Source: an uncultured Azospirillaceae bacterium
GTDB lineage: Bacteria > Pseudomonadota > Alphaproteobacteria > Rickettsiales > UBA3002
DNA: 64,000 nucleotides
Direction: 5' to 3'
Assembly (NCBI GenBank): GCA_964564675.1
Contig: CAZMBI010000006.1
Location: 30,991-94,990, forward strand
The notes under the pieces were generated by a model. It saw only the letters and a list, made by a program, of their open reading frames with translations. It ran no database searches and was not told where the DNA came from. Of the stretch, positions 11,840 through 59,519 are shown in pieces. Within the stretch, counting starts at the first letter, position 1, and each line of letters starts with the position of its first letter. Made by a program: the position numbers and the translations under genes.

Positions 11840-11872
11840 TTTAATGACGATTATGTGACAATTGTATGAAAT
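11840..11872 (-). promoter_or_regulatory. Pho-box-like triple 11-bp direct repeat
   Basis: Minus strand reads ATTTCATACAA TTGTCACATAA TCGTCATTAAA, about 60 nt upstream of the 11778 start. Confidence 0.6.
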
Positions 11873-11880
11873 ATCAGCTT

Positions 11881-12396
11881 TTAGCGATAACGCTGGGCCA
11901 GCGCAACATAATGTGCCGCCGAATCGGGTATATAATCGATCTCTTCCCGGCTCATCGCGCGGAAGCGCCTGGCCGGGTTGCCCGCCCAGATCTCACCGCC
12001 GGGCACGCTTTTTTGCGGCGTCAGCAGGGCGCCGGCCGCCAGCATGCCGCCGCTTTGCACCACGGCGTGATCCATCACCGTGGCGCGCATACCGACAAAA
12101 CTGCCGTCTTCCAGCGTGCAGGCATGGATGACTGCGGCATGCCCGATGGTCACGCCATCACCGATCGTGGTCGGCCCGGTTTCCCGCGTGACATGGACGA
12201 TGGTGCCGTCCTGGATGTTGGTGCGCTCGCCGATGCGGATCGTCTGCACATCGCCGCGAATGACACAGCCGAACCAGATATTGCTGTCTTTACCGATCGT
12301 GACATCGCCGACAATGACGGCATTCGGTGCCACCCACGCCTCGGGATGAATGGTGGGCGTTATGCCCTGATAGGGAATGGTCACAGGGTACCCCAT
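11881..12396 (-). CDS. gamma carbonic anhydrase family protein
   Basis: Hexapeptide repeats, IRGDV, TNIQDG, VH and IGHAAVIHAC His ligands, and GNPAR. Confidence 0.93.
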   Translation of the reverse strand: MGYPVTIPYQGITPTIHPEAWVAPNAVIVGDVTIGKDSNIWFGCVIRGDVQTIRIGERTNIQDGTIVHVTRETGPTTIGDGVTIGHAAVIHACTLEDGSFVGMRATVMDHAVVQSGGMLAAGALLTPQKSVPGGEIWAGNPARRFRAMSREEIDYIPDSAAHYVALAQRYR

Positions 12397-12468
12397 AGCG
12401 TTTTTTCCGTTGATCCACGCGGTCCGATACTAAACGCTATGGGGCAAATGAGAAATGAAAAACAGCGA

Positions 12469-13506
12469 TCAGGGGGTAAGCGCCGTACCCGCCAGAGCGG
12501 TCTGTTCCGGCATACCGAACATCACGTTCATGTTCTGCACCGCCTGCCCGGCCGCGCCTTTGACCAGATTATCGATCACCGAGACCAGAATCGTCTGACC
12601 TGAACGGCGGTCGGGCGCGACACTGATATGGCAGGCATTGGTGCCGCGCACGGCATGCGTTGTGGGCACCGTACCGTGCGGGCAGATATGGATGAACGGT
12701 TCGTCACCGTAGACTGACTGCAGCTGCGCCCGGATGGAAGCCGCCTCGCCCGTGACATGGATGGTGGCGCTGATGCCGCGATTCATCGGCACCAGATGCG
12801 GCGTAAAGCTCAGCGTGAGCGGTGCGCCAGCGGCGTCGCCGAGCACCTGTTCGATTTCGGCGACGTGACGGTGCCCGCCCACGCCGTAGGCTTTCACGCC
12901 TTCGGCTACCTCGCTGAATAACATGGATTGCGTCACTTTCCGCCCAGCGCCTGACACCCCCGACATGGCACTGACAATAATCGCCGCCGGATCGATCAGC
13001 TGCGCCTGCACGAGGGGTAAAAGCGGCAACAGGACCGCCGTCGGGTAACAGCCCGGATTGGCCACCAGCCGCGCCGTGTGAACCGCATCGCGGGCATGTT
13101 CGGTCAGCCCGTATACCGCCTGCGTCTGCAGGTGCGGCGCCTGATGGGCATGACCATACCATTCGGCATAGGCGTGTGGATCGGATAATCGGAAATCGGC
13201 TGATAGATCAATAACCCTGTTGGATGCCGGCAAACCAGCAATAATCGCTTGCGTGGTCCCGTGCGGCAGGCAGCAAAACACCAGATCGATCGCGTGATAA
13301 TCCACCGTGTCGTGAGTGACAAGCGGCAGGTCATAAGCAGCCGCCAGCTGCGGAAAGACGTCACCGATGGCTTTGCCGGCCTGCGAATCGCCGGTCAGCG
13401 CCTTAATCCGTGCTCCGGGGTGATGCGCCAGCAGGCGCAGCAGCTCCGCCCCGGTATAGCCCGAAGCACCGAGAATGGCGATGGTGATGGGATGCGCTGT
13501 GACCAT
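12469..13506 (-). CDS. argC: N-acetyl-gamma-glutamyl-phosphate reductase
   Basis: GASGYTG, DLSADFRL, NPGCYPT, SGVSGAG and DNLVKGAAGQAVQNMN. Confidence 0.97.
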   Translation of the reverse strand: MVTAHPITIAILGASGYTGAELLRLLAHHPGARIKALTGDSQAGKAIGDVFPQLAAAYDLPLVTHDTVDYHAIDLVFCCLPHGTTQAIIAGLPASNRVIDLSADFRLSDPHAYAEWYGHAHQAPHLQTQAVYGLTEHARDAVHTARLVANPGCYPTAVLLPLLPLVQAQLIDPAAIIVSAMSGVSGAGRKVTQSMLFSEVAEGVKAYGVGGHRHVAEIEQVLGDAAGAPLTLSFTPHLVPMNRGISATIHVTGEAASIRAQLQSVYGDEPFIHICPHGTVPTTHAVRGTNACHISVAPDRRSGQTILVSVIDNLVKGAAGQAVQNMNVMFGMPEQTALAGTALTP

Positions 13507-13521
13507 AAGCCTGCCCGCAAG

Positions 13522-13591
13522 CCGTCATGTCCGCGCAAGCAGGAATCCGGAGGTTTGCGGCTCGCGATTCCAGCTTCCGCCGGAATAACGG
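13522..13591. repeat. REP/RPE-like palindromic element ('VIPAEAGI...DSCLR' type)
   Basis: ccgtcatgtccgcgcaagcaggaatcc...gattccagcttccgccggaataacgg, a double-hairpin inverted repeat between rpsI and argC. Confidence 0.8.
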
Positions 13592-13599
13592 AAACCCGG

Positions 13600-14572: not shown

Positions 14573-14594
14573 TCACTAAATGCGCCTGCGCCGT

Positions 14595-15156: not shown

Positions 15157-15963
15157 TTAGCCGTAACGTCCTGATATATACTGTTTTGTCTGGGTTTCCT
15201 GTGGATCTTTAAAGATTTGTTCCGTGGTCCCGTATTCATACACCCTGCCTAGATGAAAAAAAGCGGTGCGCGAGGAGACACGCTGCGCCTGCTGCATCGA
15301 ATGGGTGACGATGATGATGGTGTAATTGGTCTTCAGTTCGTCGATTAACGCCTCGATCTTGCCGGTAGCGATCGGATCCAGCGCCGAGCAGGGCTCGTCC
15401 ATCAAAATCACCTCCGGGCCCACTGCAATCGCCCGCGCGATACACAGGCGCTGCTGCTGGCCGCCGGAAAGGCCCGTGCCCGGCTCTTTAAGGCGGTCTT
15501 TGACTTCATCCCACAGCGCAGCGCGGCGCAGGCTCTGCTCGACCACCTCGTTCTGTTCGGCTTTGCTGCAGGCCAGCCCGTGCAGGCGCGGACCATAGAC
15601 CACATTGTCATAAATCGATTTGGGAAAGGGGTTGGGCTTTTGAAACACCATGCCTACCCGCGCCCGCAACAATACCGCATCCAGGCCGGGATCATAGATA
15701 TTCTTGCCGTCCAGCATGATGCGGCCTTCCACCCGGCAGCCTTCAATGGCGTCGTTCATGCGGTTGATACAGCGCAGAAAGGTGGATTTGCCACAGCCCG
15801 AAGGCCCGATCAGCGCCGTCACCGCGCGCCGGGGAATATCCAGCGACACCTCATACAGGGCCTGCTTGTCGCCGTAAAACACGTTGACGCCCTCGGAGAC
15901 GACTTTGGCTTCAATGGCGTGATCACGGTGTAATGTCTGCACGTCGGGCATGCGGGCTACCAT
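15157..15963 (-). CDS. pstB: phosphate ABC transporter ATPase
   Basis: [37 protein letters not shown] and DEPCSALDP. Confidence 0.97.
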
Positions 15964-17168
15964 TTGATTTCAAATTTGCGGCGCAGATATATCGCTGTCG
16001 CGTTCATCGCGAGCAGCATCATAAGCAGCACGATACTGCCCGTCGAGGTTTTTTCGATAAAGCCAATTTCAGGGCTGGACGCCCAGATATAAATCTGCAC
16101 CGGCATGGCGGTGGCCGGGTCAAGCAAGCCGCCCGGCACATCGACAATAAAGGCGACCATGCCGATCATCAAAAGCGGCGCCGTCTCGCCGATGGCGCGC
16201 GCCATGCCCAGTATGGCGCCGGTCATAATGCCGGGCAAGCTGTAGGGCAACACATGATGCGCCACCACCTGCAGGCGTGAAGCACCCAGCCCGCGCGCCG
16301 CTTCGCGCAGTGAGGGCGGCACCGCCTTCAGCGCCACGCGTGCGCTGATAATAATCACCGGCAGGGTCATCAGTGCCAGGGTCAGCCCGCCTACCAGCGC
16401 CGAGGAGCGGGACAGTTCAAAGAAATTGAGAAACACCGCCAACCCGAGCAACCCGAAAATGATCGAGGGCACAGCCGCCAGATTATTGATGTTGACCTCG
16501 ATGATGCGGGTAAACATGTTATTGGGGGCGAATTCCTCAAGATAGATGGCGCTGAGCACGCCGAGAAATAACGAAACACACAAACAAACCGCCAGCGCGA
16601 AAAACGAGCCGACCATGCTGCCCCAAAAGCCGGCGATTTCCGGCTCGCGGGAATCGCCGCGTGTGAAAAACCAGCTGTTCCATGTGCTGCTGATGTGATC
16701 CTGCGCGCCTAACTGCTCAATCCAGCCCACCTGCCGTTCGCTAAGCCCGGCGGCGACACCGCGCTTGAGGTATTGATCCACCGCATCATCAAGCAGTAAA
16801 AAGGCTTCGGATTCTCCCGCTTCGGCGGCCTGCGCCAGCTGCCCCGCCGCCGCGCTGCTGAGCATGCCGGCCAGTTCACGCCGGGCGCGCCGGTCCGCTT
16901 CCATGTCGCCTAAGCGGGCTTGCAGGGCAGCAATGGCCGCGCTGGTGGGGTTGGTCGCCGCTTTTGCTTTGACATCGGCGGTAAGCGGCACGTTCACCCC
17001 GTACTGAATGAAGCCGGGCAGGCCTGGCGTGATGATACTGACCAGCAGATAGACCAGCGCCAGCACGGCCAGTCCGATCGCCACGCGACCATACCACCGA
17101 AAGCGCGTCTCGGCGCGGTGGCGGCGCGTCAGTCTCGCTTTCAGTCGTGTTTCCTGCTCAGGCGTCAT
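15957..17168 (-). CDS. pstA: phosphate ABC transporter permease PstA
   Basis: [23 protein letters not shown] and RAIGETAPL. Confidence 0.95.
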
Positions 17169-18400
17169 TCATATTGCTCCCGGTAGCGGCGCACGATTTC
17201 CAGCGCGATGATGTTCAGTATCAGGGTAAAGACAAACAGCGTCAGGCCGAGGGCAAAGGCGGCCAACGTCTTAGCGCTGTCAAATTCCTGATCGCCCACC
17301 AGCAGCGTCACAATCTGCACGGTCACCGTGGTTACCGCCTCGAACGGATTGGCGGTGAGATTAGCCGCCATCCCGGCGGCCATGACCACGATCATAGTCT
17401 CGCCCAAGGCGCGTGAGATGGCGAGTAAGATACCGCCCATAATGCCGGGCAGCGCCGCCGGCAGCACCACCCGGCGGATGGTCTCCGAGCGTGTGGCGCC
17501 CAGCCCCATACTCGCCACGCGCAGCGTGCTGGGCACAGCGGTGATGACATCATCGGTAATCGAAGAAATAAAGGGAATAATCATCACGCCCATCACCAGG
17601 CCGGCGGCCAGCGCACTTTCGGAGGCCACATCGAGGCCGAATTGCTCGCCGAACGCCTTGATCAGCGGCGCCACCGATAAAATGGCGAAAAACCCATATA
17701 CTACGGTGGGAATACCGGCGAGCACCTCCAGCGCCGGCTTGATGATATTGCGCCAGCGGGCGCCGGCATATTCTGCTGTGTAAATCGCCGCAAACAGGCC
17801 GACAGGAACCGCCACACACATGGCGATGAGCATGATCAGCGCCGTACCGGCAAATAACGGCACCGCGCCGAAGGCCCCCGAGGCACCCGCCTGATCGGCA
17901 CGCAGCGCGGTTTGCGGGCTCCATTGCATGCCGAACAAGAAATCATCCAGCGGCACTTTGTTAAAAAAGCGGATCGACTCGCCCAGCACCGACAACACGA
18001 TCGCCAGCGTAATCAGAACCGACAGCGCGGCACAAGCGATCAACACTGCCTGCATCACGCGCTCTACCCGGTTACGTGCTTTAAAGGCGGTGGAAATCCG
18101 GCGGATACTGGCCTGCGCCCCGATCACGGCGACCGCAAAAGCCAGCACGGCCAGCCCAACCTGCTGTGAAATAGCTGCCGGCGGCTGCCATAGCTGAATG
18201 ACATAATACAGGATTGCCGCCGGAAACACCCCGACCAACACAGCCCACCAGCCATGGTAAAACGGCAGGGAATGCAGGCGCTCCCCGCTGGCCTGAATCA
18301 GCAGCCGGGCTTTGGATCTAGCGGTGTAAAAGGCATAAAGGCCCAGCCCGGCAAAACCGAGCATAGCTATCCACGGTATCCATGCGCCCCATCCGCTCAT
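17165..18400 (-). CDS. pstC: phosphate ABC transporter permease PstC
   Basis: LAGIPTVVYGFFA and SRALGETMIV. Confidence 0.95.
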   Translation of the reverse strand: MSGWGAWIPWIAMLGFAGLGLYAFYTARSKARLLIQASGERLHSLPFYHGWWAVLVGVFPAAILYYVIQLWQPPAAISQQVGLAVLAFAVAVIGAQASIRRISTAFKARNRVERVMQAVLIACAALSVLITLAIVLSVLGESIRFFNKVPLDDFLFGMQWSPQTALRADQAGASGAFGAVPLFAGTALIMLIAMCVAVPVGLFAAIYTAEYAGARWRNIIKPALEVLAGIPTVVYGFFAILSVAPLIKAFGEQFGLDVASESALAAGLVMGVMIIPFISSITDDVITAVPSTLRVASMGLGATRSETIRRVVLPAALPGIMGGILLAISRALGETMIVVMAAGMAANLTANPFEAVTTVTVQIVTLLVGDQEFDSAKTLAAFALGLTLFVFTLILNIIALEIVRRYREQYE

Positions 18401-18459: not shown

Positions 18460-19887
18460 TTAATCCTCGAAAATCGGTAGATAAATATTAAACGTACTGC
18501 CCTCGCCGACAATGCTGTCGACCGTGATCGCGCCGCGATGGCGCGTAATGATGCCCTTGACGATGGCCAGCCCCAGCCCGGTTCCGCCGACCTGGCGCGT
18601 GCGCGCTGAATCCACCCGGTAAAAGCGTTCCATCAGCCGCGGCAGGTGTTCCTTAGAAATCCCCTCGCCCTGATCGCGCACGGTCAGCAAGACCATCCGT
18701 GCCTGATTGCGCATACGCGTATCCGCCGGCAAATCCGACGTAACCCGCGCCCGCACGGAGACATCAGTATTGGCATGGCCGTACTTAATCGCATTGCTGA
18801 CCAGATTCTGAATCACCTGCCCCAGCTCATTAGCATCGCCTTTTACAGGCGGCAGATTGTCATGCAGATCGAGCACGATACGCATGTGCTTATCAGCCGC
18901 CGGGCGTTCGCAATGCTCGGCCTGTTTGCGCACCACTTTGGTCAGCTCCACCGAATCGGTGGGAATCGCGTTCGCGTTCATCTCGATTTTCGACAGGGAT
19001 AACAGGTCATTAATCAGCTGCTGCATGCGATCGGCCTGTTCCAGCATGATGGTGAGAAATTCGTCGCGGGCGTTGGGGTCTTCCTTGGCCGGCCCCATCA
19101 GCGTTTCGATAAACCCTTTGATAGAGGCCAGCGGCGTGCGGATTTCATGGCTGGCATTGGCCACAAAGTCGGCGCGCATCTGTTCAACGCTTTTCAGCTC
19201 GGTGATGTCATTCATGGTGATCACGGTGGAAATGCCGCCTGCCGAGGGCACGGGAAAGCGCTCGATGACAGCAAGAAAGTCGCGTATAACCGGCTCTTCG
19301 ATGCGAAACTCGATCTCCCGCCCCTTTAAATCGTGAATCACCGAGTTAACCGCATCAATCAGATAGTCGTTATCGATCACTTCGCGCAGCGGCTTTTGCG
19401 CCAGATTCTGGCCGAAAATCGCGCGCGCGGCGCGGTTGGTGCGCACGATCTGCTTGTGATCGTTGATCATGATCAGGATATCCGGCAGCGTATCGACCAA
19501 AATCTCGCGTTCGGTGATGATGCTTTCCATCTGCTGCTTTTTGATTTCCCAGCTTTTCTGCAGATTCTCCAGGGCATTGGTAAGATCGAACGGGGCCGAG
19601 AGATATTTCAGCTTGGGCGCCTGCACGCGTTTGTCCTGGGCCAGCTGGTTGACATAGCCGGTCAGCATCGCGAGATTGGCCAAAAACGGGTATACAAAAA
19701 TGGTGGTGGCCAGCAGTATAACGATGTAGGCATACAGCATCAGCGGCAGGCTGAGAATGCCAAGCACCACATAAATCGACAGGACAATCAGCGGCGGCAC
19801 GGAAACCAGCATCACCGATTTCAGCAGGGCGCGGAAATCCACGGCCGGTTTTTGCTCGCTGGGCGTATGGGATTCGGTTGACTCCAT
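18460..19887 (-). CDS. phoR: PAS-containing sensor histidine kinase PhoR
   Basis: DFVANASHEIRTPL, NLVSNAIKY, ERFYRVD and GGTGLGLAIV. Lies upstream of pstCAB. Confidence 0.9.
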   Translation of the reverse strand: MESTESHTPSEQKPAVDFRALLKSVMLVSVPPLIVLSIYVVLGILSLPLMLYAYIVILLATTIFVYPFLANLAMLTGYVNQLAQDKRVQAPKLKYLSAPFDLTNALENLQKSWEIKKQQMESIITEREILVDTLPDILIMINDHKQIVRTNRAARAIFGQNLAQKPLREVIDNDYLIDAVNSVIHDLKGREIEFRIEEPVIRDFLAVIERFPVPSAGGISTVITMNDITELKSVEQMRADFVANASHEIRTPLASIKGFIETLMGPAKEDPNARDEFLTIMLEQADRMQQLINDLLSLSKIEMNANAIPTDSVELTKVVRKQAEHCERPAADKHMRIVLDLHDNLPPVKGDANELGQVIQNLVSNAIKYGHANTDVSVRARVTSDLPADTRMRNQARMVLLTVRDQGEGISKEHLPRLMERFYRVDSARTRQVGGTGLGLAIVKGIITRHRGAITVDSIVGEGSTFNIYLPIFED

Positions 19888-20036: not shown

Positions 20037-20074
20037 ATCGCTCTCTTTAAAATTCTAATTGTCAGGATAATACC

Positions 20075-20578
20075 ATGTTTGCAGTGGTACGCACAGGCGG
20101 TAAGCAATATCGGGTCGCACAGGGCGATGTCATCGCCGTGGAAAAACTGCCAGGCGAAGCCGGCGATACAGTCACGCTGAATGAGGTGCTGGCCACTGGC
20201 GGTGATAAGCCGCAAATTGGCACCCCGCTGGTGAAAGACGCCAGTGTGAGCGCCGAGATTATCGGCCAAGAGAAGGCCGACAAGATCTTCATCTTCAAGA
20301 AGAAGCGCCGGCATACCTATCGCCGGAAGCTGGGCCATCGTCAGTCGCTGACCCGATTGCGGATTACGGCCGTGCCCGGCGCCACTCAGGAGTCGGCAAA
20401 GCCCAAACAAGGCGCCAAACCGAAAATGACCAAGAGTGGCGACAGCAAGGCTGCCGCGAAAAAACCGGCCGCCAAGGGCGGGAAAAAAGACGCAAACGCC
20501 GAAACGGCGAACAAGACCGCTCCTAAGAAGCAGGCTGCGAGCAAGAAAAACAACAAAATGGACACTAAGGATACTTAA
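20075..20578 (+). CDS. rplU: 50S ribosomal protein L21 with Lys/Ala-rich C-terminal extension
   Basis: [14 protein letters not shown] and [17 protein letters not shown], followed by a tail of about 65 aa. Confidence 0.97.
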
Positions 20579-39101: not shown

Positions 39102-40184
39102 CTAACCGCTTGCGCGGTTGCTTTCGGCTTCGCTGTAGGTGCGATATTCGGTTGGCGAACAGCCAGCGAGTAATTTGAAGACGCGATTGAACGACGCAAT
39201 ACTGCTAAACCCGACCTCGAAGGCGATGGCCGTCACTGGGGTGTGTTCTTCGCGCAGGCGCCTTTTTGCCTCGGCCACACGATAGCTGTTGACGAATTCA
39301 TTAAAGTTGCGGCCGTAATGCTGGTTGATAACCCGCGATAAGGTATGCTCCGCCAGGCCGAGATGCCGCGCCAGGCTCTCACGGCTGAAACCCATTTCGC
39401 GATAAAGCTGCTCGTCACGCATCGCGGCTTCAATCTGCGTAATGATGGCCGGATCAATCGGCTTGGGCGGTGTAAATTGCGGCTGTCCCATGCCGAAGGG
39501 AGAAGACTGATCAAAGATACGGAATAAGGATGTCAGCATCAGATAAACAAAGCTGATACGCACCACCGTGGCGCTCAGGTCGCGCCCGCTGCGCTCGACG
39601 ATGCCGCTGATCCAGGCCAGATCGAGCCCCATTAGGACTAAATATAACGATATGAGGGCAATAACCAGCCAGTATTTATGCCGGCGTAACACATCGCCGC
39701 CGCTGGCCAGGTGAATATGGGAGAAATAGCTGATTAAGAAGAGAAATATAATGCCCGTGGCGACCATACCATAAATGGTCTGCAGGGCCGTGGCGGAAAG
39801 GCAGTCTCCGCGTAATACGCAGTCCGGCTCGATCAGGTCCGCATGGTACATCCCGGCCAGAAACGCCGACAGCGGTACCAGCAGAATCAGCCAGTAATTG
39901 CGGCGGGGGATCTCGCCGGAGAGAAACTGAATGATCAGCAAAAAGCACAGGCCGGGCTGCAGGGCCTGTAAGGCGAGTAGTGCGATATGTATACCCGGCT
40001 GCTGTATCCCGAGCCAGTCACGCAAGGGCGGCATAAAACTGCACGCCAGGCAGATAAAATAAGCAACCGGTATGAGAATACGATGCGGGTCACGCGTAAG
40101 AAATGCCAGCAGGCCAATCACAAACAGGCAGGGCAATAACCCGGCTATCTGTAACGCATCAATGACACGTATCGAGTCTCCCAT
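39102..40184 (-). CDS. AraC-family regulator with multi-pass N-terminal membrane domain
   Basis: About 7 hydrophobic helices followed by AraC HTH (LSRVIN, FNEFVNSYRV, IAFEVGFSSIASFNRVFK...SPTEYR). Confidence 0.9.
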   Translation of the reverse strand: MGDSIRVIDALQIAGLLPCLFVIGLLAFLTRDPHRILIPVAYFICLACSFMPPLRDWLGIQQPGIHIALLALQALQPGLCFLLIIQFLSGEIPRRNYWLILLVPLSAFLAGMYHADLIEPDCVLRGDCLSATALQTIYGMVATGIIFLFLISYFSHIHLASGGDVLRRHKYWLVIALISLYLVLMGLDLAWISGIVERSGRDLSATVVRISFVYLMLTSLFRIFDQSSPFGMGQPQFTPPKPIDPAIITQIEAAMRDEQLYREMGFSRESLARHLGLAEHTLSRVINQHYGRNFNEFVNSYRVAEAKRRLREEHTPVTAIAFEVGFSSIASFNRVFKLLAGCSPTEYRTYSEAESNRASG

Positions 40185-40258
40185 GGGACCACACGCAAAT
40201 TATGAACCTATGGATAACCTAAATTAAATGACCGGGGAAGGGAACGAAAAAGCTGAAT

Positions 40259-40960
40259 TTAGGGCGTTTTACTGTTCCGCTCGTGGAGCTTCTCCAGCCG
40301 GTTCAAACGCTCCTCAATAAAATACTGCATAAACCGCAACTCGCCTTCCGACAGGTTCTCCGCGTTTTCCTGAATCTCAGTAATGATGCGGTAGGCGTCC
40401 TCCATCTCACCGCGCTGTTCATGAATAAAGGCAGGTAGCTGCTGCGCCCAGATGGGAATGTCACGCATACCCTCCAGCCGTTTCGCCGCTTCCAGCGCGA
40501 GGTCTTTATCTTCCAAGCGGTGATTCGCCAGATAAACTGCCTGCACCAGCCACCACCATTTGTCTTTGGCGTCGGTGCGGGACACATGTTCCAGCAGATA
40601 ATCGACAATATAACGCACGTCCTGCCTATTAGGGGTTTGCGCATAATAATAACTGGCCATGGTCGGCACGAAGTTTGAACGTGCATCCAGGGTATCAAGC
40701 AATCCGAACCATAAATAAAGCTTGCGATAATCGTATTTTTTCAGCGACGTGAAGCGCCCGAACGTATCGCCTGCCATCTGAATTTGTAAGCCCAGCAACC
40801 GGAAAAAAGATTGCGAGTCCCCTAATGCCAAGGCGCCAAGCGCCGACTCGCCGGGCACTTCGGGCACAATGTCCATATGCGGCAGCCTTTCCCGCGCGTG
40901 CTGCCAGAACACCACCTGCGCCGCGAGTATGCCGGCTATTGCGATCACCCATTTGATCAT
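40259..40960 (-). CDS. hypothetical membrane-anchored helical (TPR-like) protein, pilus-cluster associated
   Basis: N-terminal TM and helical body. Translationally coupled to the permease gene. Confidence 0.7.
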   Translation of the reverse strand: MIKWVIAIAGILAAQVVFWQHARERLPHMDIVPEVPGESALGALALGDSQSFFRLLGLQIQMAGDTFGRFTSLKKYDYRKLYLWFGLLDTLDARSNFVPTMASYYYAQTPNRQDVRYIVDYLLEHVSRTDAKDKWWWLVQAVYLANHRLEDKDLALEAAKRLEGMRDIPIWAQQLPAFIHEQRGEMEDAYRIITEIQENAENLSEGELRFMQYFIEERLNRLEKLHERNSKTP

Positions 40961-41724
40961 CAGAACTGACGCCGCTTGAAATCAATAATCGCCGCCATTA
41001 TCAGCAGCGGAATAAAAATGGCGGCCTGGGTGGTAAACCAAGCCCATTCAAACCACGTATCCAGTCCGTATACCAGCCAACGGGTCTGGGCAAAGAAATC
41101 CAGCCGCGGAATGAGAATCGCCACCCCGTCTACAATCCGCTGAAACACAGGTACCAGCTCGGAATCACCGGTGGCCATGGTGTTTTGTGCGGTGGCAATA
41201 AAAAAACCCATCATGCGCGACAGCGCATAAAACCCCATACTCGCCAGCACGGCACTGACCGCACTGCGCAGGGCGAATCCCGCAAACAGGGCGATAGCGA
41301 CTACCAGCCAGCTCTCCAGTAACAAGCTCAGCGCCCAAAACCAAAAGCCGGCTGACGACAATACACCCAGCATATAATGTAATAGCACCGTGGCACCCGC
41401 CAGCAGCGTAGCGACACAGGCAAACCCCAGCCAATAGGCTATCACGATGGCGGGGCGTGTGATTGGCCGTGAGAGCAGGACATCTATTTCCTTCGTATGA
41501 AACGCGGCGCGTAAATGAAAACAAACAAACACGATGAGTCCCACCATCAGCACCAGCCGGCTGCCGGCGGCACTGAGGCTGAGTGTCATTTCATGCGGTT
41601 CGACAAGCGCCGTTTGGCCCATCACATAGGCAATGCCTATGATCACTAACACGGCGGCGATCAGTGCGAAAAACAGCCGGTCCCGCGTGGCGGTCAGCAA
41701 GACATATCGAATCGTGGGTCCCAT
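40960..41724 (-). CDS. ABC-2-type permease-like membrane protein
   Basis: About 6 TMs, LLSRPITRPAIV motif and C-terminal DFKRRQF, typical of ABC-2/PilI-like permeases. Confidence 0.8.
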   Translation of the reverse strand: MGPTIRYVLLTATRDRLFFALIAAVLVIIGIAYVMGQTALVEPHEMTLSLSAAGSRLVLMVGLIVFVCFHLRAAFHTKEIDVLLSRPITRPAIVIAYWLGFACVATLLAGATVLLHYMLGVLSSAGFWFWALSLLLESWLVVAIALFAGFALRSAVSAVLASMGFYALSRMMGFFIATAQNTMATGDSELVPVFQRIVDGVAILIPRLDFFAQTRWLVYGLDTWFEWAWFTTQAAIFIPLLIMAAIIDFKRRQF

Positions 41725-41743
41725 TGCCTGGCGTCATGCCTTG

Positions 41744-43594
41744 TTAGAATACGAGGGGGCGCGGATCATCGGTAAATTTATCATAAATCATTTTATCCGC
41801 CGGCTGATAGCTACCGGACGGGCTGATGATGGAGGCTTTGATAAAAATAATCAGTTCCCGCTTGGTGGTTTGTTTATTGGTGCTTTTGAAGGCGTTGCCG
41901 ATCCAGGGAATGGCACTGGCATAGGGCACGCCTTCATCCGTATTCTGATTGATATCCTCCATCAAACCACCGATCACCATCACGCTGCCGCTGTTTAATT
42001 TCATTACCGAATCCAGCTCGCGCACCTCGACCACCGGCACTTCATTGACAAATTGCTGATCGGCATCCAGATCCTGATTGAGAATGGCCGAACCGGGATC
42101 CTGCACGGTATCCACCTGGCGCGACAGAGTGGGCCGGACATTCAGGGTGACCGTATTTTTATCCAGATTGATCGACGGCAGGATGCTCAGGATAATGCCA
42201 ATCGGCACCGAGCGCCGGGTGGTTTCAACGGAACGGCTGCCTTCCGTGCGCGTGCCGTCCGGTAAGGTTTGATCCGCCTCTTCTTGAATATCCACCTCAA
42301 AGAAAATACGGTTCTCGGCAAAGGTTAACACCGCCTGCTGATTATTAATCGCGTGTAGCCGTGGGCTGGACAGTGTGCGCGACGTTCCAAATTGCTCGGT
42401 TAATTGTACCACTGCATCCAGATTGACGCCGAGATTATTATCCCCCTCAGGGTTGACAGCTCCTACGTTATCAGAGTCAATACCGGGACCAAGCACGGTT
42501 ACAGTAGCGCCATTGGTAGAAGTGGTCGGAAAATTGAGGTTTAAATCGGTATTACCAATAACCGAAGACCAGTCTACCCCGCTTTGATAGCCTTGGTTCA
42601 GTTCAACTTCGACGATTTTTGCTTCAATCAGCACCTGAGCCGATGCATTCCGTTTGAGGTGCTGGAGATAATGCTTGAGCATTTCATGCTGACGCTGGGT
42701 AGCCGACGCCGAAAGCAGACCTGCTTGACGATTGATGATAAAATAACTGCCCGGTATCCCTCCTTGCGTTGGTTGTGCGGATGTCACCGACGAAGCGGCT
42801 TGAAATTGTCCGCCATTTTCTCCTTCTATTGGTTCCATGCCTTCGACAGGCTGTGAATTTAAAATCTGGTTCACGTGCTCTCGCACGGAATCCCAGAAAT
42901 CACTTTCCGTAGTGGACGAAATGGAAGAGGATGAGCCGGTAGACAATCCTTCACCGCCGCCGCCGCTGCTGCCTCCACCACTACCGCCTCCACTGGCGGA
43001 AGAAAGCACATCGGTGGACACACTCACTTCGCTTTGACTGTTGCGCACGATATTGAGGAAATCGAGCGGATAATTTTTCAGGTAGGGTTTGTCCAGCTCA
43101 ATCCGCAAAACCCCATTATGCATTTCATAACGCAGCCCAGTTAAACCCGCGATACGGGCGATGACCTCGTTAAACGGTCGGTTTTTGGCGCTGAACGAGA
43201 TGCCGCCTCGAATGCCCGGACCGAGTTCGATATCGACATCCGCCAGGCGAGCCAACTCAAGCAAGACGTCCTTGATCGGCACATCGTCGGTGACGGAAAC
43301 CGTCACCAATTTCTCACGGCCGACTTCCGGCGGCTTGGGCGCTGCCAGAATCTGCGCCATTTCAGGAATGGGGGGGGCGGAACTGAACGCTTCTGGCGGA
43401 TTTTGTCCATATTCGGACTCTTTGGGCGCCACCATGTTCTGATAATCATCGCGGTTCAATTCCAAATCGCGATCGATAAAATCATAGCTGGCGTCATCAA
43501 ATATGCCGCCCTCCGAGGCGCACGCAGCGACCAGCAGCAAGGCGCCTGCACCGATGATTTTCGTTAGCCGCTGGCGGCATCTGAAGCCGAACAT
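41744..43594 (-). CDS. outer-membrane secretin (MshL/PilQ/GspD family, lipoprotein type)
   Basis: Lipobox LLVAAC, Ser/Gly-rich N-domain insert, QVLIEAKIVEVEL, LSSPRL, VIGGLM, IPWIGNAFK and RELIIFIK. Confidence 0.92.
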   Translation of the reverse strand: MFGFRCRQRLTKIIGAGALLLVAACASEGGIFDDASYDFIDRDLELNRDDYQNMVAPKESEYGQNPPEAFSSAPPIPEMAQILAAPKPPEVGREKLVTVSVTDDVPIKDVLLELARLADVDIELGPGIRGGISFSAKNRPFNEVIARIAGLTGLRYEMHNGVLRIELDKPYLKNYPLDFLNIVRNSQSEVSVSTDVLSSASGGGSGGGSSGGGGEGLSTGSSSSISSTTESDFWDSVREHVNQILNSQPVEGMEPIEGENGGQFQAASSVTSAQPTQGGIPGSYFIINRQAGLLSASATQRQHEMLKHYLQHLKRNASAQVLIEAKIVEVELNQGYQSGVDWSSVIGNTDLNLNFPTTSTNGATVTVLGPGIDSDNVGAVNPEGDNNLGVNLDAVVQLTEQFGTSRTLSSPRLHAINNQQAVLTFAENRIFFEVDIQEEADQTLPDGTRTEGSRSVETTRRSVPIGIILSILPSINLDKNTVTLNVRPTLSRQVDTVQDPGSAILNQDLDADQQFVNEVPVVEVRELDSVMKLNSGSVMVIGGLMEDINQNTDEGVPYASAIPWIGNAFKSTNKQTTKRELIIFIKASIISPSGSYQPADKMIYDKFTDDPRPLVF

Positions 43595-43691
43595 GAAAAC
43601 CCTTCGCAACCACTACCAATAGTATTAACAAAATATATATACCACAATATCATCGAAGCACAATCACGTAGCATGTTATCCACAACAAAGC

Positions 43692-44459
43692 TCACGGCGC
43701 CAACAACCGCGCCCAGTCCGGAAACAGGACGCAAAGCAGCAAGGATACGGCAAGCGCCGGGCCGAACGGGAAATAACTGCCCCGGCCACACAGGCGCCAT
43801 ACCAGCGCGAAGAGGATACCAAGTATACCCGATAACAGCATGAATAGCACAAAGCCGTAGCCGCCAAGCCATAGCCCGGCCACGGCAAAGAATTTGACAT
43901 CGCCCAGCCCCAGCCCCTCTTTATGGCGTAACCAGCGAAAGCCGGCGCGCAGCCCCCACGCCAGGCCGCCGGCAACCCCGGCCATCAGGAGATGCGCCGC
44001 CCACGGCGCCTGCATCACATACAGATAAACAAGCCCAAGGGCGGCCATGGCAACCTGCAGTTCATCGGGCATGAGGTAATGTTCCAGATCAGTCATAATC
44101 AGCGCGATCACGCAGACCAACAGGCCCATCAGGATCAGCGTATGCCAGCTCGGCCCGTGCAACCATAACACGCCGATGAAACTCAGCGCGGTGAGCAGTT
44201 CCAGCGCCGGGTAACGCGGGGAAACAAGCGTATGACAGTAGCGGCACCGCCCGCGGCTTAACAGGTAAGACAGTACCGGTATCAGATCACGCGCCCGCAA
44301 CACGGTGTCACAGTGCGGGCAGCGTGAGGGCGGCGTGACAAAGGAGATATCGCGCGGCAGCCGGTAACTCAGCGCCGAGATAAAGCTTCCGCAGCACAGC
44401 CCGAACAGCACGGTTGCAGGGTAGAGAATTTCCGGAAGCAAAAGCCATTCGAGCTGCAT
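43692..44459 (-). CDS. pilD: type IV prepilin peptidase/N-methyltransferase (A24)
   Basis: GSF...YRLPR, SRCPHC, GRCRYC, DLE, GLGLGDVK and PFGPAL. Confidence 0.93.
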   Translation of the reverse strand: MQLEWLLLPEILYPATVLFGLCCGSFISALSYRLPRDISFVTPPSRCPHCDTVLRARDLIPVLSYLLSRGRCRYCHTLVSPRYPALELLTALSFIGVLWLHGPSWHTLILMGLLVCVIALIMTDLEHYLMPDELQVAMAALGLVYLYVMQAPWAAHLLMAGVAGGLAWGLRAGFRWLRHKEGLGLGDVKFFAVAGLWLGGYGFVLFMLLSGILGILFALVWRLCGRGSYFPFGPALAVSLLLCVLFPDWARLLAP

Positions 44460-52418: not shown

Positions 52419-52991
52419 ATGTTCGCGCAATTCGCTCGCTGGTTAAAGCCGTCTCCTGCCATCGATCAGGCGAACAAGCTTTATATTACCTTGGTTCAGC
52501 AGGCCCGTCAGCCGGTTTTTTATGATGAATTGGGAATTCCCGATTCGCTGGACGGGCGCTTTGAAATGATCCTGATTCATTTGTTCCTGCTTACCAAGCG
52601 CCTGCAGGAGCTCGGCACAGAAGAGGCGGACGCACTAGCCCAGCACGTCACCGAGACTTTTTTCAACGATATGGACCGTTCGCTGCGCGAAATCGGGGTG
52701 GGCGATATGAGCGTTGGCAAAAAGGTCAAGGCCATGGCGAATGCTTATAATGGGCGGCTGACGGTATATGCCGACGCCATGGGCGAGCCATCGGCGCTGG
52801 CTGAGGCCCTGCGCCGTAACGCCTACGGCACGGCCCGGCCAGATGACGCACAGCCGCATCAGCTGGCAGCATATATGATGACCGCCCAAACTGAGCTTAG
52901 CAAGCAGGCGCCTGCCGACATCCTCGCGGCAACCATCACCTGGCCCACCCCGCAGCCACCGGCTGAGGGTGACGGCAGAACCGCCGGGTGA
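52419..52991 (+). CDS. ubiquinol-cytochrome c chaperone (Cbp3/UQCC1 family)
   Basis: QARQPVFY, PDSLDGRFEM and DMDRSLREIGVGDMSVGK. Confidence 0.92.
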   Translation: MFAQFARWLKPSPAIDQANKLYITLVQQARQPVFYDELGIPDSLDGRFEMILIHLFLLTKRLQELGTEEADALAQHVTETFFNDMDRSLREIGVGDMSVGKKVKAMANAYNGRLTVYADAMGEPSALAEALRRNAYGTARPDDAQPHQLAAYMMTAQTELSKQAPADILAATITWPTPQPPAEGDGRTAG

Positions 52992-53001
52992 GGGCTGTAA
53001 C

Positions 53002-53508
53002 ATGAGCGGGGTGATGATTGTCGTCATACTCACCGGGCTGCTTCTGATCGCCTGCGCCTATGACGCCAGCCGTTTCATCATCCCCAACTGGCTGAACGGC
53101 CTGCTGGTTGTGCTTTATCCGCTGTGGGTCTGGCAGGCTCCGCACGCCGTGGACTGGCAATCCGGCCTGGGCTTTTTCGCCATTCTGCTGCTGACCGGCA
53201 TCGTTTTACATATGTTTAAATTATTCGGCGCGGGCGACGGCAAATTACTGGCCGCCTGCGGGCTGTATTGCGGGATCACGCCGGCCGGATTTCAACTGGT
53301 GTTATATATGGCCATCCTCGGCGGGGCGCTCGCGCTGGTGCTGATTGTGATGCGCTACCTGGCGCCGATGCTGGCGCCGAAGCTCGGATGCCACACCCTG
53401 CCCCGGCTGTTGACCATGGGCGAACCGGTGCCTTATGGCCTGGCCATTGCCGGTTCATTCCTTATCCTGCTTTGGAGCGCCCGCCTGCCGGGAATGGCGA
53501 CCGGTTGA
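53002..53508 (+). CDS. cpaA: Flp/Tad prepilin peptidase (A24, CpaA/TadV type)
   Basis: D..RFIIPNW, FGAGDGKL and VPYGLAIA. No N-terminal Cys domain. Confidence 0.85.
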   Translation: MSGVMIVVILTGLLLIACAYDASRFIIPNWLNGLLVVLYPLWVWQAPHAVDWQSGLGFFAILLLTGIVLHMFKLFGAGDGKLLAACGLYCGITPAGFQLVLYMAILGGALALVLIVMRYLAPMLAPKLGCHTLPRLLTMGEPVPYGLAIAGSFLILLWSARLPGMATG

Positions 53509-54524: not shown

Positions 54525-54558
54525 CAGTCATCATTCTGTCACGCAAGTCATATAAGAT
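54525..54558 (+). promoter_or_regulatory. Pho box + -10 hexamer
   Basis: CAGTCAT-catt-CTGTCAC (54525-54542), exactly 10 nt, then TAAGAT (54553-54558). Confidence 0.7.
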
Positions 54559-54564
54559 GAATAG

Positions 54565-56028
54565 ATGCAGGCCCACGCACATGATAGCGGTTTTCTGGCT
54601 CCGGGCGTCCGGCTTATCCATCAGGATGCGTTGGTGATTCTGGCGAACGGCTCATGCATGACACTGGGAAAATGGCTACCCTCTGTCACCACCGACCTTA
54701 GACACAAAACGCTGCCGAATAGAGATAAAAATAACCCGTTAGTGTTAGACGGGATTCCACTGGCCATTATCAATCCCGCAGACAATACGCCGCAAGGGTT
54801 AGCGTCTTTGTTAAACAGCGCATTTTATAAACAACAATTCGTGCGCACGGCAGATGCCCTGATCACCGGCCAAGGGCTTCGTGACGCGGCCCTGTGGGCT
54901 CGGGTATTCAATATACCGGTCCATACGATCACGCCGATAGCAGCGGATTTACCGCGTCGCCTAAATACCCAGACGCGTCAGGACACATTAGGAAAACTGT
55001 ATGATCTGGCCTGCGCAGAAAAGCGCTTGACGACTGATGCAACCCACATTCAGGGCTGGCACGAAGAACTGAATACCATCTATGCCACAGGATTGGGGAA
55101 CGGCCGGCGAGTGCGGGAAGACCTGCGGCGCGGCCGAAACCACCTGCGCTACAGCGAAGTGCCGGCGGAGCGCATTGAGTCGCTGCCCGTTTTTATTACC
55201 AGACCCACACTCCCTCAGTCAGATGCGCAAAACATCGCCAGAGGCGCATTAGACGGGTTCGTCAAGCACAACAGGCAATCCCGTCACCTGTTACACCCGC
55301 CCCTTGACCGCAGCCACAGCGAGGCAACCATTACCGGCCTGTTGGCACAATTGCCGCCTGCTTTTCGCACCATTCTGGCGCGCTATCCCGTCAACATCAT
55401 CGTCACCGACGATATGCTGTGGCTTAAGCCGGAATTAAATCATATCGGAGAGCTGGGAGAGTCGATAGCACGGCATCAGCTCATCACTATAGAGCGCGGG
55501 CGTTCGCACGGCAAGGCAAACATCCCATGCGCCTTTCTGGAGGAGATGGTGCACCACATTGAAGATCATATCATTCAAAGCAAACCCGGAAAGGCATGGC
55601 ACAAAGAATGGAAAAACGCGGTCAAACGCGATAAAGAGCACCCGCAGACAATTGAAGCGACCCGACATCTAAGACACTTAATTAGCAAGGGGGAGATTAT
55701 CGGTCAGGACAAGCGGCGCGGTCCGTACACGGCAAAAGACATTCCCCACGAACTCCTGGCGGAATTATGCATCATCGATCAATTCCAGGAGCAATATGCC
55801 ATTCTGCCCAACCCGCCCGCCGGGCAGAGGCAATCTTTGGCACATCGCGCATTGCTGCAGCATTACTTTCCAAACACTGCGCCGGTTTATTTTCGATTTC
55901 AGGAAGTGGTAGAGGAAATAGCAGCGCAGGACAAAGCGACTGATCCGCCGGCACAGCGCCCGCCAGCAGGCAGTCACCGCGCCCGCCTCGCAAGTGAAAG
56001 AAAACAACAGAACCACCAACGCCGCTAA
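54565..56028 (+). CDS. orphan protein with C-terminal zincin-like (lethal-factor/PPEP-like) domain
   Basis: [10 protein letters not shown] ... [11 protein letters not shown] ... LLQHYFPNT. Codon usage differs visibly from neighbours. Ends [19 protein letters not shown]. The start could alternatively be 54658. Confidence 0.7.
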
Positions 56029-58619
56029 GCCGCCGCCTGGCCATCCACCGCAATATGCAGCCCCAGATCATGGCCGGTGACCACGACGTGATCGCCGTCG
56101 CTGATATCACCACTTAACAGCTTGGTGGCCAGCGGATCCTGCAGCTTTTTCTGGATGACGCGTTTCAGCGGCCGCGCGCCGTAGATCGGATCATAACCCT
56201 GCTCGGCCAGCCATTTTTGCGCCGTTTCATCAAGCTCCAGCGTGATGCGTCGGTCAGCCAGCAGTTCCTCAAGGTGCTGGATTTGAATGCTCACCACTTC
56301 GGCCATATGCTCACGACTTAAGCGGCTGAACAGCAGGATTTCATCCAGCCGGTTTAAAAATTCCGGCCGGAACGAGGTCCGCACCACTTCCATCACCGAT
56401 TCGCGCGCCTCTTCCACCGGTGCCTCGTCGGGCAGATCGGCGATATACTGCGCCCCCAGATTGGACGTAAGAATGATAATGGTGTTGCGGAAATCGACAG
56501 TACGCCCCTGTCCGTCGGTAAGGCGGCCATCGTCCAGCACCTGCAGTAAAATATTAAACACGTCGCTATGCGCTTTTTCGATCTCGTCGAATAAAATCAC
56601 CTGATAAGGCCGCCGCCGTACGCTTTCGGTGATCACGCCGCCTTCTTCATAGCCGACATAGCCGGGTGGCGCCCCGACCAGCCGCGCCACTGCGTGTTTT
56701 TCCATATATTCAGACATATCGATGCGCTGCATGGCGCTTTCATCATCGAACAGGAATTCAGCCAGCGCTTTGGCCAGTTCGGTTTTACCCACGCCGGTGG
56801 GGCCTAAAAACAGGAAAGAGCCGATCGGCCGCGCCGGGTCTTTAAGCCCCGCGCGCGAGCGGCGCACGGCGTCACTGACCGCCTGAACCGCCTGCATCTG
56901 ACCCACCACGCGGCTGCCGATGGCCGCTTCCATGCCAAGCAGTTTCTCGCGTTCGCCTTCAAGCATCTTATCGACCGGAATCCCTGTCCAGCGGGATATC
57001 ACTTCGGCGATTTCCTCAGCCGTAACCACTTCTTTTACCAGATCGCCGGTTTCCTGATCCTGCGCGTCATCAGCCGCGGCAATCTGTTTTTCCAGCTGCG
57101 GAATGATGCCATAGGCCAGTTCGCCGGCACGCGCCAGATCGCCTTCGCGCTGGGCCTGTTCAAGCTCAAGCCGCGCCTGCTCCAGCTGTTCCTTCAGTTG
57201 CGAGGAGCCAGCAAGCCGCGATTTCTCCGCCTGCCATTGCTCGGTCAGCCGGTTCGACTCCGCCTCCAGTTCCTCGATCTGCTCATTGAGTTTGTCCAGA
57301 CGCTCCTGCGAGGCTTTGTCGTTTTCCTTCTTGAGCGCCTCACGCTCGATTTTCATCTGGATCAGCTTGCGATCCACCTCATCGAGGGCTTCCGGCTTGC
57401 TATCGACCGCCATGCGCAACCGGCTGGCGGCCTCATCCATCAAATCGATGGCCTTATCGGGCAGGAAGCGGTCGGTAATGTAGCGATTCGACAAGGTCGC
57501 CGCCGCCACCAGTGCCGCATCGGAAATACGAATACCGTGATGCACCTCGTATTTTTCTTTCAGCCCGCGCAGGATGGAAACGGTATCCTCCACCGTTGGT
57601 TCGGAGATGAATACCGACTGAAAACGGCGGGCCAGCGCCGCGTCTTTTTCGATATGTTTGCGGTATTCGCTCAGCGTCGTTGCACCCACGCAATGCAGTT
57701 CGCCGCGCGCCAGCGCGGGTTTGAGCAGGTTGGAGGCATCCATCGCGCCTTCCGCCGCACCAGCGCCCACCAGCGTATGCAATTCGTCGATAAACAGAAT
57801 AATGTCGCCTTCCGCGGCATGAATTTCCGCCAGCACCCCTTTCAGGCGTTCCTCGAACTCACCGCGGAATTTAGCGCCGGCCACCATCCCCCCCAGATCA
57901 AGGGCGAGCAGTTTTTTATCTGTCAGATTCTCCGGCACGTCGCCGGCAATAATCCGCTGCGCCAAGCCTTCGACAATCGCCGTCTTGCCCACACCCGGCT
58001 CACCGATTAATACGGGATTGTTTTTGGTCCGCCGGGAAAGCACCTGCATCGAACGGCGGATTTCTTCATCGCGGCCGATGACGGGATCGAGCTGGCCTTC
58101 TTTGGCCGCCTCGGTGAGGTCTTTGGTATATTTCTGCAAAGCCTCGTATTGGTCTTCGGCATTGGCAGTGCTCGCCGTACGCCCCTTGCGCATGTCATTG
58201 ATGGCTTCATTCAGGGCCTGCGGGGTAACGCCCGCCTGTTTGAGCAATTCCGCGGCGCGGCTCTGCTCGATACTTAACGCCTGTAAGAGGCGTTCGGTGG
58301 TGACAAATTCGTCCCTGGCCTTTTCCGCTAGCTGTTCAGCCGATTCGATCACGCGCGCGGCTTCCGGTGTCAGATACAGCTGGCCGGCGCCGCCGCCTTC
58401 GACCTTTGGAATCTTGTTTAATTCGGCTTCGAGTTGCTGTTGCAGCATATCGGCCTTGCCGGCGGCGGCGATGATGAGCCGCAGTGCCATGCTGTCTTCT
58501 TCGAGCAAGCTTTTGCAGATATGCTCCGGCGAAAAACGCTGATGGTTCGAGCGCAGCGCCAGCGCCTGGGCTTCCTGGATCACCTTACGGGCCTTATCGG
58601 TATATTTTTCGAAATTCAT
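56025..58619 (-). CDS. clpB: ATP-dependent chaperone ClpB
   Basis: Two AAA+ modules ([16 protein letters not shown]), coiled-coil M domain and GARPLKR. Start refined to MNFEKYT. Confidence 0.98.
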
Positions 58620-58654
58620 AGGCTTATCATTAGTTTGAATTCGTTTCCTTTTCT

Positions 58655-58692
58655 TACATATATAACTTAAGCTATCTAAAACAAGTTTTAGA
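58655..58692 (-). promoter_or_regulatory. putative sigma32 promoter of clpB overlapped by an 8-bp inverted repeat
   Basis: Minus strand CTTG-N16/17-TTATAT. TCTAAAAC-aa-GTTTTAGA lies at 58675-58692. Confidence 0.5.
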
Positions 58693-58700
58693 CTCATATC

Positions 58701-59477
58701 ATGCGTCTGATTTTAATGATTCTAGCTATCGCCGCGCTGGCGTTGCCCGCGCTGGCGCAAACCCCTTACAACGCGCGAGGCACCTGGTATATTGCCTGGA
58801 ACGGCATTGCGTTCGCCAAGCTCTGGATTGCCGTGCAGGAGAACGCGCAAGACTATGAACTGACCGCCGCCTACAAGAATCGCGGCATTGTCAGCCTGTT
58901 CGATAAAAGCAAAAGCCTGACGCGCAGCCATGGCGTGCGGGTGGGGGGTGGTATCCAGGTGCTGGAATATGCCTATGACAACGAGGTGCGCGATAAGTCG
59001 ACGCATCTGACATTTGACCGCGCCGGCGAGTTGATCCGCCGGCAGGTGGTGCCCGAAGACGATCCCGATCATCGTCCGCCGGTGCCATCCGCCGCGGTCA
59101 AAGGCGCGGCCACGCCGGGGAATCTGCTGTTCGCGCTGCGCGAAGCAGCCCGCCGCGCCAAAGACCTGCCTAACCCCACCTTCTCCTTCCGGTTTTATGA
59201 CGGCAAGCGCCTGATGCAGATCAATGGCGAGATCTTGGGCCCGCGCCGCTACGAAATTGACGGGCGCGCGTATGATACGCTGCGGCTTGTCGTCTCGCGC
59301 CGGCTGCTCGGTGGATTTACGCAAAAGGAGATCGCCCGTTACCACGAGGGCGAACCGCCGCTTTATCTGTATGTTGACGACGCGACGCTGTTTCCGCTGG
59401 CCATGGAAATCGAGGTGAAACTCGGCACCCTGCGCGCCGAATGGGATGCGGAATCAGACAACGCACAGAATGAATAA
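58701..59477 (+). CDS. DUF3108-like exported protein
   Basis: Signal peptide (ALA-Q), Y..AWNGI, FYDGKR and a beta-rich body. Confidence 0.75.
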
Positions 59478-59485
59478 TGTGATAA

Positions 59486-59519
59486 TCGTCATCAAATTGA
59501 CATAATTAACATCTATACT
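59486..59519 (+). promoter_or_regulatory. Pho-box-like repeat + -10 hexamer
   Basis: TCGTCAT-caaa-TTGACAT (59486-59503), exactly 10 nt, then TATACT (59514-59519). Confidence 0.6.

Follow-up and report, generated by a model that had tools for sequence, protein, structure and literature searches.

Tandem GTCAY half-sites with an 11-bp period, phased to a -10 hexamer, mark about one hundred promoters in the genome of an uncultured bacterium assigned to the Rickettsiales, and these promoters head type IV secretion system (T4SS) genes together with a large set of proteins that belong to no known family. The element was noticed upstream of three genes, here named a, b and c, in a stretch of 64,000 nucleotides (nt) from assembly GCA_964564675.1 (contig CAZMBI010000006.1, positions 30,991 to 94,990; hereafter the window). 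A preliminary description of this stretch had proposed that PhoB, or another OmpR-family regulator, controls dispersed orphan genes for effector-like proteins through a shared promoter of the Pho-box type. The element proved to be real and its genes to be mostly family-less, but the scale had been set far too low, at three promoters instead of about 100, and the link to the T4SS had been missed. We consider it fairly probable that the GTCAY repeats are the sites of a tandem-binding activator of the OmpR/PhoB family, most likely PhoB, that secretion machine and cargo are co-induced, that T4SS substrates are numerous among the family-less proteins, and, as the weakest step, that phosphate limitation is the input.

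The assembly that holds the window (G000; 1.94 Mb, 32 contigs, 99% complete) was searched as a whole. The strict repeat GTCAY-N6-GTCAY occurs 47 times in it, against 2 occurrences of a reversed-pattern control, and 30 of the 47 copies fall within the 12.7% of the genome called non-coding. From these 30 sites we built a 22-nt position weight matrix (PWM), which is circular for the 30 sites themselves; at 14 bits or more it gave 147 matches genome-wide, 118 of them non-coding. Genes were called with a crude codon-usage picker of open reading frames (ORFs). It overlooked gene b and further ORFs with low scores, so that the numbers given for non-coding sites and for orientations hold only approximately. 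The preliminary description had suggested comparing such a scan with shuffled intergenic DNA, and the outcome was clear-cut: 1007 intergenic segments hold 29 strict repeats, where 20 dinucleotide-preserving shuffles average 0.5 (maximum 2), and 106 PWM matches of at least 14 bits, against a shuffle mean of 2.2 (maximum 4).

In the window, GTCAYN6GWCAY is found three times where 0.60 would be expected, and a count of three is attained by 2 of 100 shuffles; the excess within the window alone is marginal. The three sites had been described exactly as to sequence, coordinates and spacing, and all are intergenic, each facing its own gene (Table 1). No other non-coding site of the window reaches 12 bits, and none of that score lies upstream of phoR or pstC, in agreement with the earlier statement that the repeat was not seen there or in the other intergenic regions that had been read. 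The view that the matches arose by chance in AT-rich intergenic sequence, or that a small mobile repeat was copied around the genome, could find some comfort in the two shuffles out of 100; this explanation is refuted by the genome-wide excess over shuffles and over the reversed control, by flanks that differ from copy to copy and by the conserved position of the element in other genera, and we regard its probability as negligible.

Half-sites have the form (G/T)TCAY, with GTAAC and TTCAC as frequent variants, and stand two or three per promoter, separated by A-rich spacers. Among 94 sites with a good -10 hexamer, the distance between the last half-site and this hexamer is bimodal: 22 sites lie at 10-11 nt (class 1, with a and b) and 37 at 21-22 nt (class 2, the commoner arrangement, with c), the two classes differing by one helical turn, while the remaining 35 sites are scattered, with one to three per spacing position. 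The consensus of either class consists of the repeats, the A-rich spacer and TAtAaT, without a separate -35 hexamer. As the sites fall into two classes, each strictly phased to the -10 box, and a separate -35 hexamer is lacking, the element appears to be an activator-dependent promoter for a tandem-binding winged-helix protein. In tandem intergenic regions 51 sites share the orientation of the downstream gene and 11 have the opposite one, and some of the latter probably reflect small genes that the ORF picker missed. Downstream of site a, a third GTCAT (54547-54551) follows the second half-site at 9 nt and not at 11 nt; this out-of-phase copy overlaps the spacer before the -10 box.

The opposite function was also considered, namely that the repeats are operators through which a repressor silences recently acquired genes of lower GC content. 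The GC content at third codon positions is indeed lower in the genes headed by the motif than in the rest of the proteome (0.589 versus 0.682, p 4e-16), and the sites overlap the -35 region, from which OmpR-family proteins can also repress. However, the two-class phasing with no -35-like hexamer apart from the repeats is a signature of activator dependence, and the site is also found at core T4SS genes that are kept throughout the order; we judge silencing very improbable.

To describe the regulon, the 94 clusters of non-coding sites that score 15 bits or more were assigned to 86 distinct downstream ORFs, which were compared with Pfam at 1e-7. No Pfam family was found for 74 of the 86 (86%), against 8 of the 58 other ORFs of the window (14%). 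The 12 ORFs with a family include VirB2/TrbC pilin, VirB3 and VirB4. Cell-wall and lipid enzymes are headed by the motif as well, more specifically a PG_binding and M23 protein of 786 residues, a glucosaminidase, CHAP and amidase_3 protein of 1032, a PG_binding_1 protein of 501 and a Lipase_3 protein of 580, and no Sec signal is seen at the N-termini of these peptidoglycan hydrolases and of the class-3 lipase. M48 peptidase, Lactamase_B_2, carbonic-anhydrase-like, bPH/SHOCT and RadA-like proteins complete the members with a family. A further 13 high-scoring sites were flagged as coding; they concern seven family-less ORFs, a second M48 peptidase and a Bmp/PnrA-type binding protein, and four of them are located within or alongside ordinary genes (gyrB, a Mur ligase, aconitase and a GlnA-like gene). 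The regulon is undercounted, since good copies of the motif, of 17-22 bits, face contig ends or gaps (C6:107111-107132, C20:31644-31665, C14:57838-57859, C12:4450-4471 and C9:82779-82800).

The composition of these proteins was compared with that of the rest of the proteome. Hydrophobic N-termini are found in 4.8% of the regulon and in 15.9% of the rest. The basic tails ascribed to the orphans found weak support: the last 10 residues are slightly more positive (net charge +0.76 versus +0.18), but a strongly basic tail, defined as a charge of +3 or more over the final 25 residues, is less frequent in the regulon than elsewhere (8.4% versus 16.5%). At the C-termini P, Q, S, R and H are enriched and hydrophobic residues depleted. 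All-against-all BLASTP resolved four small families of 4, 3, 2 and 2 members among otherwise mostly unrelated proteins, one of the two-member families being gene c with C1:89103-90221. The effector-like arsenal of the preliminary description gains from these results, as the gene set looks secretion-linked, with one and the same element at T4SS genes, at Sec-less peptidoglycan hydrolases and at a lipase.

The T4SS is of the rvh type, with two VirB4 paralogues in all 41 genomes compared, and the element stands at three of its loci (Table 1). When the 400 nt upstream of virB2 were scanned in related genomes, the best PWM match reached at least 12 bits in 27 of the 31 genomes with a PhoB above the curated cut-off and in 1 of the 7 without, the one being G011, a metagenome-assembled genome (MAG) that is 80% complete. 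In two genomes from two other families (G030 and G040) a tandem site lies just upstream of virB2, as predicted beforehand, the identity of virB2 being confirmed by Pfam. Each of the 24 genomes sampled from the same family contains an excess of the strict repeat itself (20-80 copies versus 2-12 for the control), as do five other families of the order; in the rest the repeat is near background. Taken together, the comparison indicates that virB2 is the most conserved position of the element in the order and that regulon membership is fluid across it. The virB2 promoters of relatives usually show an extended -10 of the type TGTG-n-TA right after the repeats in several families, and the site keeps a conserved position there.

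The three genes of the window had been called unrelated orphans, which holds for a and b but not for c. Gene a gave no homologue in a search of a collection of 5.8 billion proteins, and weak matches were obtained in 2 of the 40 related genomes (G011 and G019), where the motif (21.9 and 23.3 bits, respectively) lies about 40 nt before the ORF start. In gene a and in both weak relatives the -10 hexamer is placed just 5-6 nt ahead of the ATG (window 54553-54567), and the transcript of gene a is predicted to start at about 54565, that is, on the ATG. As these -10 boxes sit a few bases from the ATG, part of the regulon may be expressed from leaderless mRNAs. For gene b a transcript start is predicted near 59526, and no relatives were detected in the 40 related genomes. 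The predicted start for gene c is at about 11810; all three predictions place the start some 7 nt past the -10 box.

Gene c belongs to a lineage-restricted family with relatives in 19 of the 40 related genomes, and its paralogue is likewise motif-bearing. Seven of the relatives were fetched; six have the motif with class-2 spacing, the seventh has TTCAC-N6-TTCAC, and TATACT, TACAAT or a similar hexamer stands at the distance at which gene c has TAGGCT. An AlphaFold2 model of gene c built from 9 sequences is all-helical (mean predicted local distance difference test score 69.5); Foldseek against the PDB gave no match to it at E 0.001 or better, and a search of a genome-contig collection for related loci found nothing. 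An assignment of gene a as a metallopeptidase found no support: its Atlas matches all score below 0.9 (0.87 for metallopeptidase-like clusters), and no HExxH is visible by eye in the translation.

Table 1. Sites, promoters and genes discussed in the text; positions without a contig prefix are those of the window.
Feature	Position	Strand	PWM score (bits)	Description
Site a	54525..54542	+	17.7	CAGTCAT-CATT-CTGTCAC; two half-sites, 11-bp period
-10-like hexamer of site a	54553..54558	+		TAAGAT; 10 nt past site a
Gene a	54565..56028	+		487 residues; no Pfam/NCBIfam family; low codon-usage score; true orphan
Site b	59486..59503	+	24.5	TCGTCAT-CAAA-TTGACAT
-10-like hexamer of site b	59514..59519	+		TATACT; 10 nt past site b; class-1 spacing
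Gene b	59549..59878	+		109 residues; orphan; glycine-rich middle; only a sub-threshold DUF3482 match
Site c	11840..11872 (half-sites 11872-11844)	-	26.3	ATTTCAT/TTGTCAC/TCGTCAT; three phased half-sites
-10-like hexamer of site c	11817..11822	-		TAGGCT; 21 nt beyond last half-site; class-2 spacing
Gene c	10513..11778	-		421 residues; all-helical, hydrophobic N-terminal segments; no known family
virB2 site	C8:9467-9488		20.0	
virB3-virB4(I) site	C14:2057-2089		20.0	virB3, virB4(I) and three virB6-like genes follow
virB4(II) site	C18:14796-14828		22.6	virB4(II), virB6-like gene, virB10 and virD4 follow
Class-2 site near hemF	C3:36410-36431		19.6	ORF C3:35139-36404, 421 residues, no Pfam family; hemF at C3:33456-34517
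PhoB	C27:8894-9637			TIGR02154 334.9 bits, cut-off 296.2
phoR-type histidine kinase	18460..19887	-		no motif upstream
pstC-pstA-pstB	15157..18400	-		phosphate ABC transporter genes; no motif upstream
Gene cluster	39102-44459			no motif; AraC-type regulator, two family-less genes, secretin, prepilin peptidase
Family-less genes of the cluster	40259-40960, 40960-41724			
Secretin	41744-43609			
Prepilin peptidase	43692-44459			
Second A24 peptidase-like gene	52969-53508			no motif

Which protein binds the element was approached from the five Trans_reg_C proteins of the genome, namely PhoB, CtrA, an OmpR-like protein (of an OmpR/EnvZ-like pair), a KdpE-like protein and a receiver-less protein of 212 residues. 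The DNA-binding domain of PhoB has its best PDB match in the domain of Escherichia coli PhoB (3T72, 1GXP), with an E value of 2e-26, six orders better than the next family; these structures show that domain on DNA and with sigma-4. Its recognition helix is identical to that of E. coli PhoB save for two conservative changes, and the other four proteins have different recognition helices. The element itself resembles the E. coli Pho box in its TGTCA(T/C)-type half-sites, in the 11-bp period and the A-rich 4-bp spacer, and in the class-1 sites, a and b included, that end 10-11 nt before the -10 box. It differs from the Pho box in that the larger class, to which c belongs, is placed one helical turn further upstream, and in its targets, which are T4SS genes and family-less proteins, not scavenging genes.

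The distribution of the candidates among the 40 related genomes was also compared. CtrA was assigned to its own family. The KdpE-like protein was not found in 17 of the 40, including the complete and motif-bearing G012 and G030; the OmpR-like protein does occur in G026, G035, G038 and G039, which are motif-less; and the receiver-less protein was not found in G025, G029, G030, G032, G033, G037 and G040, all of which have the virB2 site. PhoB thus appears to be the only OmpR-family member whose presence tracks the motif, and it comes out as the best candidate, in line with the PhoB/OmpR-family control proposed in the preliminary description; on recognition helix and phyletic pattern, PhoB is likely to be the regulator.

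If so, phosphorylated PhoB dimers or oligomers would bind the repeats and bring in sigma-70 RNA polymerase in the way known from the pho promoters of E. coli. Machine and cargo of the T4SS would be induced jointly, and the family-less proteins of the regulon would include many T4SS substrates. The input signal may be phosphate limitation sensed via PhoR, which is the weakest step of the proposal. The phoR-type kinase of the window falls below both cut-offs that define such kinases by profile, with 295.8 bits for TIGR02966 (cut-off 334.2) and 332 bits for PnpS (cut-off 400).

Several observations weigh against this account, some of them touching the regulator and others the cargo. With respect to the regulator, the regions upstream of phoB, phoR, pstC and pstS, read in the gene's orientation, give at best 4.8 bits or less and no match of at least 12 bits, and no such match was found upstream of any of the five regulator genes, which yields no clue from autoregulation. 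The pstS gene is the most conserved PhoB target elsewhere, so that the lack of a site there counts in particular; its promoter in G000 is sigma-70-like, with TTGACA and without the repeat, and in the 530 nt upstream of pstS, scanned as a control for the virB2 search, only 1 of 30 relatives reaches 12 bits. Moreover, on a VirB4 tree the PhoB-less G026, G035, G028 and G038 form one clade with G027 beside it, and because of this clustering the co-occurrence of PhoB and motif is statistically weak, one to three loss events being sufficient. The 80%-complete G011 has the motif and no PhoB above the cut-off, and G038, from another family, has 12 strict repeats versus 2 for the control and likewise no PhoB above the cut-off. 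Finally, of 30 genomes just 6 retain the site upstream of virB3-virB4(I), and its conservation across the order was rejected.

These points give room to an alternative in which element and regulon are the same but the binder is the OmpR-like protein, the receiver-less 212-residue protein or a member of an unrecognised family, PhoB having an ordinary or vestigial role. The bare promoters of pstS (in 29 of 30 relatives), phoR, pstC and phoB, the motif-bearing genomes in which PhoB is not detected, a correlation that a single loss event might produce and the frequent half-site variants GTAAC and TTCAC would all be accommodated. On the other hand, the remaining three candidates agree less well with the motif in their distribution among genomes and CtrA stands in its own family, the recognition helix of E. 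coli PhoB is found in PhoB alone, and PhoB would be left with no over-represented TGTCA-type repeats to bind in the genome, and we hold such a binder to be unlikely.

If PhoB is the regulator, it would appear to be uncoupled from the phosphate uptake genes in the whole group, because pstS and the other genes of this set lack sites. The unmarked promoters of pstS, phoR, pstC and phoB set the circuit apart from the E. coli Pho system and agree with the earlier statement that the regulon does not serve classical phosphate scavenging. The repeats of G038 have T-rich and not A-rich spacers and may reflect a different regulator or the opposite orientation. Autoregulation of the regulator found no support, the upstream regions of all five regulator genes being free of the motif. 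Two further observations concern the surroundings of Pho genes: a 190-residue, family-less ORF of membrane type with a motif of 19.6 bits (C5:30418-31070) lies directly upstream of pstS, and a weak site of 11.6 bits, below threshold, lies at about 20060-20085 upstream of phoR in the opposite orientation, facing an ORF on the forward strand (20075-20578).

With respect to the cargo, neither all-against-all BLASTP nor C-terminal composition revealed a common C-terminal domain or a strong secretion signal among the regulon proteins, and about 45% of them have a transmembrane segment by a crude criterion. Immunity-like neighbours were sought by crude ORF inspection at five enzyme-type loci and none was seen, the neighbours being housekeeping-like, with no small lipoprotein-like ORF. 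The regulon might then be a phosphate-stress regulon of PhoB in which the family-less members are envelope, membrane or stress proteins and the T4SS is merely co-induced. The hydrophobic N-terminal helices of gene c and the presence of the Bmp/PnrA-type binding protein, the M48 peptidases and the carbonic-anhydrase-like and RadA-like proteins would agree with this, as would the transmembrane segments and the missing common signal. However, Sec-less peptidoglycan hydrolases and a lipase need an exit route other than Sec, hydrophobic N-termini are depleted, the members are fast-evolving and mostly unrelated to one another, as in effector sets, and the element is most conserved at virB2. We find this alternative distinctly unlikely and retain co-induction of machine and cargo by PhoB as the probable explanation.

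A regulatory logic of this kind, with an OmpR-family regulator, a tandem repeat next to the -10 box and joint control of a T4SS and its effectors, is already known from PmrA and VirG, and the rvh/Pho-box case would be the new part. PmrA of Legionella pneumophila and Coxiella burnetii is an OmpR-family regulator whose tandem repeat lies immediately upstream of the -10 box, and it controls secretion genes together with many unrelated effector genes. Similar to the PmrA-controlled Icm/Dot regulons, which are the nearest parallel, a single kind of site is found here at secretion structural genes and at many unrelated, lineage-specific genes; unlike in those systems, which are of type IVB and belong to intracellular Gammaproteobacteria, the T4SS is a P-type rvh system in an environmental alphaproteobacterium, and candidate regulator and repeat are different. 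In Agrobacterium, the OmpR-family regulator VirG acts through the vir-box to activate a VirB-type T4SS operon and substrate genes, with phosphate starvation feeding in via virG. An OmpR-family regulator, here a candidate, and a VirB-type T4SS are shared with that circuit, which in contrast is plasmid-borne, has a small regulon and a different box, and takes plant phenolics as its main signal. The PmrA motif is reported to have been used as a feature for effector prediction (PMC2701608).

For basal, free-living Rickettsiales it has been proposed that the rvh T4SS kills bacteria, with PG-binding/M23 proteins as putative effectors and the T4SS of Xanthomonas (X-T4SS) as the model (Schoen et al. 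2022, PMC9352585; Verhoeve et al. 2024, PMC11077975); the available part of the former (PMC9352585) assigns no verified effectors. The system described here is likewise of rvh type, with duplicated virB4 and several virB6 copies, and its PG-binding/M23 proteins are Sec-less and carry the T4SS promoter element. The Sec-less peptidoglycan hydrolases and the lipase would fit the published idea of an rvh system that kills bacteria in early-branching free-living Rickettsiales. Differences from that proposal and from the X-T4SS lie in the five loci without immunity-like neighbours and in the regulon proteins, among which BLASTP finds no common C-terminal domain, a search made with no Xanthomonas-domain profile. 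The main text of PMC11077975 contains the words 'promoter' and 'PhoB' zero times and draws no cis-regulatory link, and full-text literature searches, with supplements outside their scope, returned no published link of a promoter motif or of PhoB to the rvh system, the available parts of PMC6863919 and PMC9418006 included.

The shared promoter element marks the proteins of about 100 genes as a list of candidate T4SS cargo for an uncultured lineage, and it ties the proposed peptidoglycan-targeting proteins to the T4SS. The approach should extend to the rest of the family and to several neighbouring families, given the enrichment of the motif in the 24 family genomes sampled and in those neighbours. 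Were PhoB indeed the regulator, this would be a striking repurposing of a textbook nutrient regulon. More tentatively, and as a possibility that we would not yet call probable, PhoB may have been rewired away from phosphate scavenging in environmental Rickettsiales-like bacteria, the ancestral rvh system being a contact-dependent weapon for killing or predation and the motif an effector catalogue in every genome of the group.

PhoU (PF01895), another point of difference from the E. coli Pho system, was not found in the 99%-complete genome, though the genome has phoR, pstCAB, pstS and phoB. A loss of PhoU throughout the family was rejected, since PhoU occurs in 22 of the 40 relatives and its loss is patchy. 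Five sequencing runs were found to contain this DNA, all of them of microbial-mat or sediment DNA.

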